Notes under the pieces: generated by a model
What the model was told of the DNA's origin: nothing
Database searches by the model: none
What the model saw: the letters and a program-made list of their open reading frames with translations, nothing else
Shown here: piece after piece, positions 4,612-10,426 of the stretch
Layout: every line of letters begins with the position of its first letter
Numbering within the stretch: the first letter of the stretch is position 1
From: a virus
Virus genome (UHGV): UHGV-1885740
DNA length: 14,785 bases
Direction: 5' to 3' (one strand)
Program-made: the position numbers and the translations under genes

Positions 4612-4896
4612 ATGGCTATTGTCACCGTTGGCGATGTAGTGGAAATGGAAGCAAAATACTTAAAAGCGGGTATGCATATCCTACGGAATGATCAAGAATT
4701 GTTATTAACGATGGTAGACTATAATCCCGGCCAGGATTATCCAAGCATCGACTACTTTTTTGAGTATGTTGATGAAGAATTGAAAGAGGATGAGGCTTAT
4801 CAGGGTGAATTCTGCAATTTCTTTTGCCCTGATGAGGTTGTAAAAGTTATCTATCAACCTGGCGTACCTTTCCCGCTGCACGCTATCAATAAATAA
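4612..4896 (+). CDS. hypothetical acidic protein (94 aa)
   Basis: ATG with TAGGAG 4598-4603; ORF track. Confidence 0.8.
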   Translation: MAIVTVGDVVEMEAKYLKAGMHILRNDQELLLTMVDYNPGQDYPSIDYFFEYVDEELKEDEAYQGEFCNFFCPDEVVKVIYQPGVPFPLHAINK

Positions 4897-7059: not shown

Positions 7060-7113
7060 AATGACACGGGCCAAAAGGCCCACTAATCAGAACCACACAA
7101 AGAGAGAAAGAAA

Positions 7114-7332
7114 ATGACAACCCGTAAAATTAAAGTTGTTTGCATTGAATCGACTGGGGGCGCTTTTGTAGTTGGTCAGGAATATAATGCGGTTTTAATG
7201 GGTACGGATTGGAAGGTTAAAGGCCTTAATGGTTACGAGTACGGCACTACTTGCGGCTTGCGTGGTCGAATCGGATACGTGAGTTTAGACAATAAAGAAA
7301 AATTTGTTTTCGACACCGTTGTGAGTAAATAG
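7114..7332 (+). CDS. hypothetical protein (72 aa)
   Basis: ATG with a purine-rich Shine-Dalgarno site; ORF track. Confidence 0.75.
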   Translation: MTTRKIKVVCIESTGGAFVVGQEYNAVLMGTDWKVKGLNGYEYGTTCGLRGRIGYVSLDNKEKFVFDTVVSK

Positions 7333-7409
7333 CATGAATTGCTAAAGACTGATCTGCGAACTGCTGTATTATCAACTAATCAAAACGAACCACATAAAGA
7401 GGAAACATC

Positions 7410-7672
7410 ATGAAACGTCTGGATCAGCTTAAATTAGTTCAGTACATGGCCTACAGAATTCTTGAAGTCCAGAAAGGTAGCAAAAAAGAGGTTTGCGAGA
7501 AAGCTTATAAGATCTTCACTCGTAAAAAGATGATTGGATGTTACGCCAGACCAAAAAGGCTGACATCTTGGGGTACCTGGAAGAAGAGATCCGCCTTGAA
7601 GAGCAAGAAGAGATCCGCCGTAGTGAGGCAGATTATCAGGCAGCTTGGGAAAACTGGATGAGCAACAAATAA
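7410..7672 (+). CDS. hypothetical protein with an apparent frame change (frame 0 from 7410; -1 frame from about 7526 to TAA 7670-7672)
   Basis: The ORF-track frame (7410-7661) turns K/R-rich with rare AGA/AGG codons after about 7530, while the -1 frame reads DILGYLEEEIRLEEQEEIRRSEADYQAAWENWMSNK with ordinary codons. A T-AAA-AAG motif sits at 7523-7529, and a 15-bp direct repeat lies at 7581-7595 and 7606-7620. Alternatively two genes, the second starting at ATG 7538. Confidence 0.5.
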
Positions 7673-7691
7673 TACAACAAGGTGCACGGTC

Positions 7692-7717
7692 AGGGGCTTA
7701 AAGCCCCTTTCTTTTTG
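7692..7717 (+). terminator. intrinsic terminator closing the rightward gene module
   Basis: Stem AGGGGC/GCCCCT with loop TTAA followed by TTCTTTTTG. Confidence 0.8.
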
Positions 7718-8322
7718 TCTCCTCTTTTCCTACCACAAATGGCCCCGCCTGGCAAATGGAATAATCAACAAGCCAGCAATTAACCCCACTGTACAAACAT
7801 ACATATAAAATAACTATTGCATAATTTTTCATTGTGTGGTAGCAGGGCCATTTTTACACGTTTTTCCTTCCAAAATTGCACGTAATGCAGCATTTGCACA
7901 AAATTTAACCTGATGCATATCTTCAATAGCTTGTCAACAACTAAAAATTCTTATAAGTCATACACTTACATAACTACAAAAGCGTTTTCTACGTGAAAAA
8001 TCGAGTATAACTATAGCCGCCAGATCTCAGAATTTACGTACGCTCGCCATTCTATAGCCTGCTAAGCATTTATTCCAACCATAGAATAACGGAATAGTCA
8101 ATACCTGCATAAAATAATTATTCGTGTAAACTGCATAACATAAATCGGCCCAAGTGTCAACATTTTTCGTAAACAGTCTGGAATTGTCACGTTAGGTTAC
8201 CATAAGCAGAGAAATCTTTAGTCGTCTAATGTTTACTGTACGTTACTATACTAACTGGAATCATTAGATGACTAATAGAAAGATAAGAAATAATTAACAA
8301 TACAATTATTCTATCTGTAACA

Positions 8323-8593
8323 ATAAGGCAACTATGCAAACGAATGGCATGGCGCGACGGAGTCGCGACATAATATAAAAGCAGTAACCATCACCCCCGT
8401 GATAGTTTGTCTGCAATCTATTAATCAGATCATAGTTGCCTTGTATTCAGTTAATCATGACATAACAAGCAAGGCAACTATAGATCTGCTAATAGTTGCC
8501 CTGCTTTTATATTATGTCATGCTAATTATAATCAGTGCGATTATTGTCATGTATAATTATTGTCATGCAAACGAATGGCATGGCTTATCATTT
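8323..8593. repeat. nested inverted/direct repeat element (about 270 bp)
   Basis: AAGGCAACTAT at 8325-8335 and 8471-8481, with inverted copies at 8432-8442 and 8492-8501; 18-bp direct repeat TGCAAACGAATGGCATGG at 8335-8352 and 8566-8583; 18-bp perfect inverted repeat 8367-8384 / 8501-8518; palindrome CGCGAC-GGA-GTCGCG around 8354-8368. Confidence 0.8.
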
Positions 8594-8610
8594 TTGAGTA
8601 AATAATCTAT

Positions 8611-8716
8611 ACGTTAACAGTAAGCTATGTAAACTATTGGGAATGTAAACAGTAAAGGTCATGAACAGTAAGCGAGCGAATAGTAATAGCGTGAATAGTG
8701 ACAGCGTAAACAGTCA
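8611..8716 (+). repeat. tandem iteron-like array (about 7 units, 15-16 bp period, core GTAAACAGT / GAAYAGT)
   Basis: Cores at 8614, 8629, 8645, 8661, 8677, 8692 and 8706; further isolated copies in both orientations at about 8169, 8843, 8989 and 9719. Confidence 0.75.
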
Positions 8717-9298
8717 TGCATGTCAATTATGTTCAGTGTGTTTAATGTGCTTAAAGTGTCATATTATGTCAGACAAGTTTTTCTCCTCTTTGTCAAGTGC
8801 TGCATGAAAAATTTACAAGCTTGTATGGTAGCATTTTTGCGGCCCTGTTTACATTCAGTGTTGTATGTATAATCCTTGTTGTGTGGGCGTTTAGACGTCT
8901 GGACGGTCAGAAGTCTGCAGGTCAATATCTAATCTATTGGCTGCTAACTATATCCCCCCACAAATAATAAGAAATATAATTGTTATGTGCGTAAACAGTA
9001 ACCTATGTTATCAATCCCTGTATGTATCGCCAGTGGTGCGCATAATGGGTATTATGTTAAATTGCCCGTAATGATAAAGATTCTCACAATGATAGGTATT
9101 CTCATTCACCCTCACAAAATAGATTGCAAATGTTGTGCCACTGTGTGAACGGCCTCACCTATTAATTTGCCTCACTGCCTCGATATTTGAGAATTATTAT
9201 AAGAATGAGAAGTATTCCCATTCCGTCCGCCTGGCAGCACTCCAGTCGCTACCGCTCATGACAGGGCAGAACTGGGCCCATTCAGATATTTCTGACTG

Positions 9299-9567
9299 AC
9301 TCTTCAGGTCTGTGTGGGAAAAGACAACCTCTCCGGCGGGACAGGGGGATATCTGAGGAGAAATTGCAGGTCAATTAAAAAATTTACGTGGTGTATGAAG
9401 CGATCTTCAGGCAAGGTATGTATTATGGGATGAAACCCTCTTCAGGCAATGATATTTGTGGGTGTGATATTTGCTGGAAAGCCAGATATGACGGGACTCC
9501 CGGCGGGGCAGGGGTAGTACAGACAGGGAAAATATGGGGATGTAGTTGGGTAAATTGATCAGGCAGG
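9299..9567 (+). repeat. cluster of CTCTTCAGG-family motifs plus a GC-rich direct repeat CCGGCGGG(R)CAGGGG
   Basis: CTCTTCAGG at 9300-9308 and 9438-9446 (also 9850-9858 and 10500-10508); GATCTTCAGG 9402-9411; GATCAGGCAGG 9557-9567; CTCCGGCGGGACAGGGGG 9331-9348 against CTCCCGGCGGGGCAGGGG 9497-9514. Confidence 0.7.
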
Positions 9568-10210
9568 TAGAGTATGGAATATGTTACAGGTATGTTAAAT
9601 AGGGAGGCTGAATATCTGTAGGATTTGTGTGTAAAATCAAAGACTTAAGTGGTGTTGCGGTATTTTCTATAAATAATTCAAGTTTAATAGGTAATATTTG
9701 TCTCTATTCGCTTTGTGTGGTAAACAGATTCAGATGAGATTGGTTTACAAGTGTATACATAATATACAAATTAAAGATACAAGAAACCCCCTCCCCCTTC
9801 GGCTACCATTCACCTTTTCCTCTGACTGGTACTTAAACACTTATTCAGACTCTTCAGGTTATCACCCATATATCATATGGCAGTGACTGGTGTCCTCCGG
9901 CCCCTCTTTCGTCACCCGTCCGCTTCGCCATGCTAATGCCATAGCCAATGGTTCGGTTGTTCACCCTGTTCACTCAGGTGTATCTCCATACCCCTTCAAA
10001 CCGAAGAGAACAGAAAACCCGAATTACTCGGTAAAAGAAAAGAGAAGAACTTAATTTTATCAGGATAGGCAAGAATGTCAAGGCATGACTGCTCACTAAA
10101 CAAGCAAACAGTCATGTGTGGAAGGTAAGTGATTGTGGTGGTGGGAAATTTAGTTGAAAGATGTGTTATAGGTGCGCTTCCAGCACTTTGGCCGGGCAGC
10201 TAATTGTGCG

Positions 10211-10426
10211 TCAGTCCAGCGGTTCATCCTCTACTTCACTGAAATCAATGTTCATGGTCTCTTCCCAACCATCGATCTCAGCACAAGAGTGGAGTTCTTT
10301 AGGGTTTACTCCCAAAGCCTCAGCAACAGAGTCTATATTTAACACCTCTGGCAGGTATGATTCATCGAATTCAAGGTAAATCAGGCCACGAGTGTTGTCA
10401 GCTCCACCAAATATTTCTATCTTCAT
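10211..10426 (-). CDS. hypothetical acidic protein (71 aa)
   Basis: ATG with GAGGAG 5 nt upstream; ORF track; the overlapping plus-strand ORF is S/T-rich antisense. Confidence 0.65.
   Translation of the reverse strand: MKIEIFGGADNTRGLIYLEFDESYLPEVLNIDSVAEALGVNPKELHSCAEIDGWEETMNIDFSEVEDEPLD

Follow-up and report, generated by a model that had tools for sequence, protein, structure and literature searches.

A gene-free gap with a compact repeat element

The DNA analysed here (the window) is a stretch of 14,785 nt from the virus genome UHGV-1885740. It belongs to Vequintavirus, i.e., the rV5-like E. coli myoviruses with genomes of ~137 kb, of which ~120 related records share 85–97% identity with it. 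Between two convergent gene blocks the window includes a "non-coding" gap of ~2.5 kb without credible genes, and in this gap lies the subject of this study, a compact element of about 270 bp (positions 8323–8593) composed of direct repeats and nested inverted repeats.

On the left side of the gap, the last plus-strand gene ends at 7661 and is followed by a strong terminator (7692–7708); on the right side, the first minus-strand gene is located at 10214–10426. The flanking operons terminate well outside the element, about 650 nt away. The gap is unannotated in the curated records (rV5, FV3, the O157 typing phages and the BASEL phages), and tiny open reading frames (ORFs) are called in it only by automated pipelines. 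In the rV5 genome paper, the gap is drawn as a grey box with the label "non-coding"; the authors expected a bidirectional terminator there, which was not found, and the change in GC skew at the gap coincides with the change in gene orientation. Sequence conservation in the gap (91–96%) is about equal to that of the flanking genes. The core of the element (8350–8500) is among the best conserved blocks, with 96.5–99.6% identity across relatives, while the stretch to its right (8600–8750; 66–77%) is the least conserved of the gap. The GC minimum of the window (0.34) lies at 8201–8800.

The importance of the gap is suggested by a saturated transposon library of phage Bas54 (MaxBurger), described in the HIDEN-SEQ preprint (10.1101/2025.11.20.689424), in which zero insertions were recovered in the gap between bas54_0134 and bas54_0135. 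This Bas54 gap matches the window at 96.4% and carries the element intact, with the same 231-nt spacing of its direct repeats. The element is therefore situated inside an experimentally insertion-intolerant non-coding locus.

Repeat architecture

The features of the element and its surroundings are listed in Table 1. An initial annotation, made from the letters of the window, described 18-bp flanking direct repeats (8335–8352 and 8566–8583), four copies of a short word in alternating orientation, and a perfect 18-bp inverted repeat. All three are real, with two refinements. The direct repeats are 20 nt in full length, their copies spaced by 231 nt. The 9-mer GGCAACTAT indeed occurs four times in alternating orientation (8327+, 8432−, 8473+ and 8492−) and nowhere else in the 14.8-kb window, but only three of these sites extend to the 11-mer AAGGCAACTAT (8325+, 8432− and 8471+), the fourth (8492−) sharing the 9-mer alone. 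The two arms of the inverted repeat, the outer stem hereafter, are complementary at 18 of 18 positions and separated by 116 nt. When the window was shuffled 200 times (Markov-1) and searched for exact repeats, direct or inverted, within 400 nt, the longest averaged 11.3 nt and never exceeded 16 nt; the repeats observed, which are co-located, measure 20 and 18 nt.

Table 1. Features of the element and of the gap that contains it (window coordinates).
Feature	Position	Strand	Sequence and remarks
Gene-free "non-coding" gap	7710–10210		Between convergent gene blocks
Outlying GGCAACTAT half-site	8325–8335	+	AAGGCAACTAT; overlaps the start of direct-repeat copy 1; kept in FV3
Direct repeat, copy 1	8334–8353	+	ATGCAAACGAATGGCATGGC; borders the GC box on its 5′ side; no variation among the relatives examined
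GC box	8352–8369	+	GCGCGACGGAGTCGCGAC; in Vequintavirus also a 6-bp hairpin (8354–8368)
Outer stem, 5′ arm	8367–8384	+	GACATAATATAAAAGCAG
Side hairpin	8386–8407	+	AACCATCAC-CCCC-GTGATAGTT; right behind the conserved TAAC
ORF of 68 aa	8399–8605	+	GTG start; drawn across the element; spurious
O1, imperfect 28-bp palindrome	8413–8440		GCAATCTAT-N10-ATAGTTGCC; 5′ strand of the inner stem (about 8415–8443); genus-specific
Apical region of the long hairpin	8444–8469		Site of a 33-nt insertion (after 8462) in rV5 and C7
O2, perfect palindrome	8473–8500		GGCAACTAT-N10-ATAGTTGCC; 3′ strand of the inner stem (about 8470–8499)
Outer stem, 3′ arm	8501–8518	+	CTGCTTTTATATTATGTC
Variable cassette	8519–8564	+	Between the conserved core and direct-repeat copy 2
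Direct repeat, copy 2	8565–8584	+	ATGCAAACGAATGGCATGGC
Iteron-like array	8598–8714	+	8 units related to GTAAACAGT, period 15–16 nt; directly abuts the element

The palindromes O1 and O2, 28 bp each and 60 bp apart, are both built from GGCAACTAT sites. In the window, the variable cassette includes two copies of ATTATTGTCATG (8540–8551 and 8556–8567), which resembles the 3′ arm's end. The 9-mer GTAAACAGT has four exact copies in the window, all inside the gap, and the motif of the iteron-like array also occurs in FV3, in ECP2309 and, in the form GTGTAAACTGTCA, in Seunavirus EspYZU15.

The ORF drawn across the element (8399–8605) had been suspected to be spurious, and the comparison with relatives bears this out. 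It lacks a Shine-Dalgarno sequence (upstream: ...CATCACCCCC); its length in relatives is 20, 30, 43, 48, 53, 62, 64 or 68 aa; it is frameshifted in TP14 and in an IMG/VR contig, and altogether absent from FV3. Three unrelated C-termini arise from the variable cassette. Pfam returned no match and PHROG only noise (E > 0.04). A protein-coding role is thereby rejected.

Predicted folding

The initial annotation also proposed that the inverted repeats could form a large cruciform or hairpin, to be checked by folding both strands. The element is much more stable than its shuffled counterparts, with z = −9.25 when folded as DNA and z = −7.6 (plus strand) and −7.7 (minus strand) when folded as RNA. 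For the core (8354–8522), z = −10.9, and none of 200 shuffles was equally stable. In 15 out of 15 phages, z ranged between −6 and −14 on both strands. The predicted fold consists of the 18-bp outer stem, the side hairpin, a long imperfect inner stem in which about 8415–8443 pairs with 8470–8499, and an apical region. The nested inverted repeats are thus supported as a hairpin-type structure that is real and under selection. It cannot form as a mere cruciform of duplex DNA: across lineages (see below) the outer stem closes a branched interior of 73–217 nt, and it would therefore form only when the region is single-stranded, be it as RNA or as unwound or displaced DNA.

For folding as RNA, the minimum free energy is lower on the minus strand by 0.4–17 kcal/mol in all 15 phages. 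This candidate signature of a minus-strand RNA was rejected, since shuffled sequences give the same offset and the z-scores are alike on both strands; the difference is compositional.

Variation within Vequintavirus and the empty site of FV3

Within the genus, the left ~200 bp of the element, as far as the 3′ arm, is nearly invariant. The stretch 8519–8564 behaves as a replaceable cassette, with at least three unrelated alternative sequences among relatives, and the spacing of the direct repeats accordingly takes values of 198, 212, 227, 231, 259–262 and 294 nt. Both repeat copies are intact (20/20) in nearly all relatives. In rV5 and C7, the 33-nt insertion enlarges the apical loop. One version of the cassette (rV5, Murica, nimi and I29) carries two GC-rich hairpins, CACCCGAAGGGGTG and GGTGACCAAAGGTCACC.

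The element was found at 121 places in 120 phage records, every one at this locus and one per genome. There was no match in 5,426 complete E. coli genomes, and the sole match among plasmids was a 137.5-kb circular Vequintavirus genome misfiled as a plasmid. Scans of IMG/VR with a 20-mer and with a GC-box pattern yielded one further Vequintavirus contig only, with the element at the same locus. A matching site elsewhere in the genome, which the initial annotation had suggested looking for, was not found.

FV3 provides the only empty site among the ~120 records: exactly one repeat copy stands between normal left and right flanks, the 231-bp unit is precisely missing, and FV3 has no other copy of the element. 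Its closest relatives in the flanks (ECP2309, ECP2303 and SYGMH1; 96.4%) carry the element. In ECP2309, the right repeat copy has a G-to-T change (ATGCAAACGAATGTCATGGC) while the left copy keeps the G, and the single copy of FV3 has the same G-to-T. Because the FV3 copy shares the right-copy variant, the empty site is best taken as a deletion between the repeats and not as an ancestral empty target. The simplest history, from these sequences, would be that an ancestor of FV3 similar to ECP2309 lost the unit when its two repeats recombined or slipped. The FV3 record could also carry an artefact of cloning, polymerase chain reaction (PCR) or sequencing, as hairpins with 20-bp flanking repeats are of a kind that gets lost in cloning or PCR.

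[quoted passage not shown] Its resemblance to MITEs lies in the size (~230–290 bp), the internal inverted repeats, the perfect flanking direct repeats of 20 bp and the one precise empty site. However, it is single-copy at a fixed, syntenic locus that is subfamily-wide (see below), its 20-bp repeats are themselves conserved, and the only empty site, in one of ~120 genomes, is a repeat-by-repeat deletion marked by the G-to-T change. The inverted repeat is not terminal: its arms begin 14 nt inside the left direct repeat and stop 46 nt before the right one, and the ends of the 231-bp unit are non-complementary. At the same site, other genera hold a module that is homologous but has repeats of its own, which co-evolve. 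As for recombination, the dyad symmetry of the direct repeat is limited to 4 nt (ATGC...GCAT), a scan of 10 larger window ORFs gave no recombinase or transposase domain, and the related phage phiTE has been reported without integrase remnants. The interior is not an invertible segment either: it is collinear, never inverted, in the Vequintavirus relatives that carry it and in nine Seunavirus and Mydovirus relatives. A recombination or resolution site thus finds no positive support, and mobility in either form is scarcely credible.

The plasmid entry mentioned above, CP057073.1 (pRHB39-C03_2), is a complete circular Vequintavirus genome of 137,565 bp that was deposited as a plasmid of an E. coli strain isolated from cattle faeces; its element is 99.3% identical to that of the window. 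The record is indicative of a carrier state, of pseudolysogeny or of phage DNA present in the culture.

A homologous module throughout the Vequintavirinae

The genes for small proteins that flank the gap are genus-restricted, and a synteny search based on them was uninformative, apart from a partial protein match in phage A7_1 (unclassified Vequintavirinae). In A7_1, the corresponding place is a gap of ~1.9 kb where convergent blocks meet and annotation is sparse. It has an 18-nt direct repeat pair, ATTGCCAGAGTATGG[A/C]GG, with copies 430 nt apart, the first of which abuts a GC box (GGCGCGAC...GCGAC); an inverted repeat (GACACTATAAAACGAG / CTCGTTTTATAGTGTC) comes after the GC box. We used this A7_1 module, and then the version in PVP-SE1, as queries across genera. 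An equal architecture in a syntenic position was found in LTH01, Avunavirus (Av-05) and TH18, in the Seunavirus phages PVP-SE1, EspYZU15, 4MG, GAP31 and FENT2, in the Mydovirus phages KpS8, Mydo, Ro1 and AV124, and in Henunavirus pEp_SNUABM_01.

In at least seven lineages of Vequintavirinae, the module thus has the same layout: a direct repeat, a GC box whose sequence is kept subfamily-wide (GGCGCGA(C/G)-N-GCGAC), and an outer stem round a branched interior. The outer inverted repeat is 16–21 nt long and perfect, except for one mismatch in KpS8, and it encloses the 73–217 nt already referred to. Its arms are lineage-specific in sequence (AAAAGCAG/CTGCTTTT, AAAACGAG/CTCGTTTT, CACGAGAG/CTCTCGTG, CACGAGGG/CCCTCGTG, CACGGGAG/CTCCCGTG, CACTAGGG/CCCTAGTG and CGCAGTAG/CTACTGCG), and in the Erwinia phage even the base of the stem is changed (GCCACCTATAAAAGCAAGTAG / CTACTTGCTTTTATAGGTGGC).

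We aligned both arms of the outer stem from 13 distinct lineages over 18 pairs, i.e., 234 cells. Standard pairs make up 98.7% of the cells, and 11 of the 18 pairs are altered on both sides (28 cells). There is no pair with a one-sided (wobble) change and not a single G-U. None of 500 shuffles matched the observed values, and when the partner arm was slid by one to three columns, pairing fell to 28–53%, with at most three pairs changed on both sides. The arms were taken in mirrored register, by which the alignment leans towards structure, yet the repeat finder located the repeat of each lineage independently. The sole mismatch within the stem, an A.C in KpS8, is intermediate between the states in Ro1 and Mydo.

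Covariation is not limited to the outer stem. For Seunavirus and Mydovirus, RNAalifold predicts a side hairpin, supported by three compensatory pairs, directly past the conserved GTAAC; an inner stem of 11 bp that is invariant (GTTATCGTGGC/GCCACGATAAC) and reaches 13 bp in the Erwinia phage; and one further hairpin with compensations. Judged from these alignments, the architecture has been retained by compensatory change in at least seven lineages, and the base pairing is evidently under clear selection; the module itself is older than the genus Vequintavirus. The 270-bp feature of the window is the Vequintavirus version of a cis-acting structured element common to the Vequintavirinae.

The direct repeats follow a pattern of their own. 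Copy 1 is immediately 5′ of the GC box in each lineage, while the position of copy 2 varies. In Vequintavirus, it is found past the 3′ arm, 231 nt from copy 1; in A7_1 and LTH01, it is also past the 3′ arm, 426–430 nt from copy 1, and is followed by a second GC-box-like sequence; in Seunavirus, Mydovirus and Henunavirus, it is in the loop, 86 nt from copy 1, where it constitutes the 5′ strand of the inner stem. As the repeats differ between lineages but the copies are alike within each, they would be functional sites and not target-site duplications. We take them to be conserved sites of this kind, presumably bound by protein or serving as alternative pairing partners. The GGCAACTAT sites, on the other hand, are absent from the other genera.

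Candidate functions

Among the suggestions in the initial annotation, a replication hairpin is our best guess for the function of the element. More precisely, we propose, with a probability of about 0.4 and from circumstantial context, that it is part of the phage DNA replication origin or of a region controlling replication. The proposal is based on the coincidence of the GC minimum of the window with the element and on the abutting iteron-like array, which has eight direct-repeat units beside this AT-rich region; the essential non-coding locus, a fold that favours neither strand, and the distance of the operon terminators from the element also speak for it. In such a scheme, the AT-rich region would be unwound or displaced, whereupon the element would fold as a single strand and provide a site for loading or priming, and phage or host proteins would attach to the iteron-like array and the GGCAACTAT palindromes. 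The palindromes, besides being strands of the inner stem, could be operator sites of a dimeric protein.

Hairpins that initiate replication on single strands are known from the primosome assembly sites (pas/ssi) of phiX174, ColE1 and F, from the sso of rolling-circle plasmids and from the mitochondrial OL, and origins with iterons or palindromes include lambda ori, plasmid oriV and the herpesvirus oriL and oriS. Of the known systems, the element is most like these two groups, by analogy. With the former, it has in common a stable branched hairpin that forms in single strands only and acts in cis, whose pairing is kept while the sequence drifts, in an AT-rich non-coding control region with an adjoining GC-rich box. 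It differs by its occurrence in a lytic double-stranded DNA phage of 137 kb and by its lineage-specific direct repeat and iteron-like array, so that the likeness is one of general properties only. With the latter, it shares an array of short direct repeats by a local GC minimum, symmetric palindromic sites and an essential non-coding locus. In contrast to iteron origins, there is neither an adjacent initiator gene nor a DnaA box, the period is 15–16 nt instead of ~22 nt, no other part of the gap is conserved so little as the iterons, and transcription converges instead of diverging. We assign the element to none of these origin families.

Several considerations weigh against an origin. The function is purely an inference. 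We found no initiator gene or recognised origin signature, the neighbouring ORFs in the window being without recognisable domains, and no DnaA boxes in or beside the element, their counts across the window being at chance level. The gap is situated where transcription converges, and the GC skew there is explained by gene orientation; moreover, the insertion-free zone of ~2 kb exceeds the size of a typical origin. FV3, the record without the module or any other copy of it, implies that the module may be dispensable, unless that record is an artefact. The perfect arms could be maintained by template-switch homogenisation instead of selection for pairing. Finally, covariation in multiple helices is equally expected of a structured RNA.

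The last point leads to a serious rival, which we nonetheless hold to be unlikely: the module could be a gene for a structured non-coding RNA made from one strand, which would either act in trans or serve as a regulator or cofactor of essential character. The locus has no genuine ORFs although it is essential, and like the structured RNAs of the Rfam type, the module has a multi-helix fold with compensations in several helices, conserved junction nucleotides (such as the GTAAC past the 5′ arm) and very negative z-scores. A strong, perfectly conserved sigma-70 promoter (10081–10054) reads into the gap from the right. Covarying helices are, however, equally expected of structured single-stranded DNA, and the signals that would single out one strand are missing. 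The 234 cells of the outer stem hold neither G-U pairs nor one-sided changes; the lower free energy on the minus strand is fully due to base composition; and neither a promoter nor a terminator is found at a conserved position by the module in the window, PVP-SE1 and Av-05, the hairpin plus T-run of the window not being kept in other genera. A cmscan of 7400–10200 on both strands (E ≤ 1) gave no match to any Rfam family. Given the lack of wobble in the outer stem, the equal foldability of both strands and the absence of a conserved adjacent promoter or terminator and of an Rfam match, we lean towards a role at the DNA level or of both strands, which fits better than an RNA from one strand.

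A transcribed non-coding "escape locus" of the rV5-like phage phiTE (pseudo-ToxI) was considered as a lead and dismissed: it is not in the homologous gap but close to tRNAs and the terminase gene, where the genes are co-directional.

The palindromes and T-runs of the window allow for another explanation, namely a protein-binding and transcription-barrier region at the convergent operons, in which O1 and O2 are operators of a dimeric regulator and the hairpins with T-runs are back-to-back terminators. The "nested inverted repeat" would then be a by-product, as two palindromes of GGCAACTAT sites at a distance of 60 bp give the alternating pattern automatically. On the plus strand, the O2 hairpin is followed by CTGCTTTTAT, and the records of Murica and Alma annotate it as a terminator; the side hairpin (8407–8386), read on the minus strand, is followed by ACTGCTTTTA; and bidirectional terminators are what the rV5 authors had expected, but did not find, in the gap. 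Yet the GGCAACTAT sites are specific to the genus whereas the outer stem and the branched fold are subfamily-wide, and the arms of 18–21 nt covary base for base far past any shared core motif. The T-runs of the window are the outer-stem arms themselves, and other genera have replacements there that are not T-rich. The flanking operons are already closed by strong terminators about 650 nt off, and a simple terminator does not explain the intolerance to insertions over 2 kb. We regard this explanation as distinctly improbable.

A further alternative would make the module part of the recognition region for packaging (pac), used by the terminase of these headful-packaging phages. Short repeated motifs with an iteron-like array at an essential locus would suit such a site, and among ~190 GenBank records for these phages, at least 20 begin or finish no further than about 2.5 kb from the module. 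But these ends are spread over more than 1.5 kb, breaks in assembly where hairpins and repeats abound fit at least equally well, and the map used in the HIDEN-SEQ paper places the terminase operon far from the gap; a pac function is in our opinion very improbable.

Records with ends near the module include magaca, Gotham, YN3, ECP2303, ECP2309, four bov phages, isim, Pr121LW, UPEC06, SalP219, KP12 and Hena1. Their clustering is several times that expected for random break points, and could reflect either assembly breaks at the hairpin-rich region or a real packaging start.

Returning to an origin, a role in priming was considered along two lines, both set aside. The T7-type primase site is GTGTC, and the base of the outer stem, GACA/TGTC, had seemed invariant; the idea was weakened by the Erwinia phage, where the base is GCCACC/GGTGGC, although a GTGTC comes after the stem there. 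R-loop priming from the sigma-70 promoter (10081–10054) with the minus-strand G-run at 9787–9797 was dropped because the G-run of PVP-SE1 is on the opposite strand, within a terminator-like hairpin, and homology of the two runs is not established.

We found the module described neither in the rV5 paper, the BASEL paper and the HIDEN-SEQ preprint nor in searches of open-access full texts. It is conceivable, if doubtful, that this essential cis element, a single-strand branched hairpin by a GC box and iterons, represents a new type of phage replication-initiation site or a new essential structured RNA. In the former case, a large lytic myovirus would have a hairpin for strand displacement or priming. 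Therapy cocktails make use of the rV5-like phages, which are among the most commonly isolated myoviruses of E. coli, Salmonella and Klebsiella. The present analysis locates, inside an insertion-intolerant non-coding region, a discrete module of 150–260 nt with selected pairing, which is open to specific tests, and suggests to annotators that the ORFs and "terminators" called in this region are probably artefacts.

Other observations in and around the gap

The sigma-70 promoter is near-consensus (TTGACA-16-TAAAAT, with an upstream TG) and located downstream of the last minus-strand gene. The ~270 nt downstream of it (10045–9780) are 99–100% identical across relatives and end with the minus-strand G-run GGGGGAGGGGG (9797–9787); a transcript of this segment could be a non-coding RNA or form an R-loop. 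The right half of the gap (9200–9750) includes the repeated words CTCTTCAGG, ATATTTGTGGG and GCCTGGCAGCA, which are also present in A7_1 (7170–7960) and suggest that there may be further conserved non-coding modules in this half.

At the other end, segment 7100–7350 (ORF 7114–7332) aligns in about one quarter of the relatives examined, and a 420-nt gene (rv5_gp159 / bas54_0134) that most relatives carry directly ahead of the gap is missing in the window, as it is in phage nomo. The gap thus has a mosaic left border (7100–7350 and 7672–7900).

The combination GGCAACTAT-N10-ATAGTTGCC, sought throughout IMG/VR, turned up in three contigs without relation to the window, in each of which it amounts to an ordinary hairpin between genes. 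In the unrelated viral contig IMGVR_UViG_3300037721_000035 (about 4780–4850), GGCAACTAT occurs three times in 70 nt, with one pair palindromic at a 10-nt spacer, which may be an operator for a related DNA-binding protein or a coincidence.

Among the database records, 18 GenBank entries for "Campylobacter phage" (MG0656xx, some of them UNVERIFIED) are Vequintavirus genomes of the usual kind, with ~90% identity to phages of E. coli, and their attribution to a Campylobacter host is probably wrong.

Lastly, ~50 nt upstream of the element (8218–8275), the window has a separate, conserved imperfect inverted repeat of 22 nt, TTAGTCGTCTAATGTTTACTGT / ACTGGAATCATTAGATGACTAA, with 82% complementarity and a loop of 14 nt.

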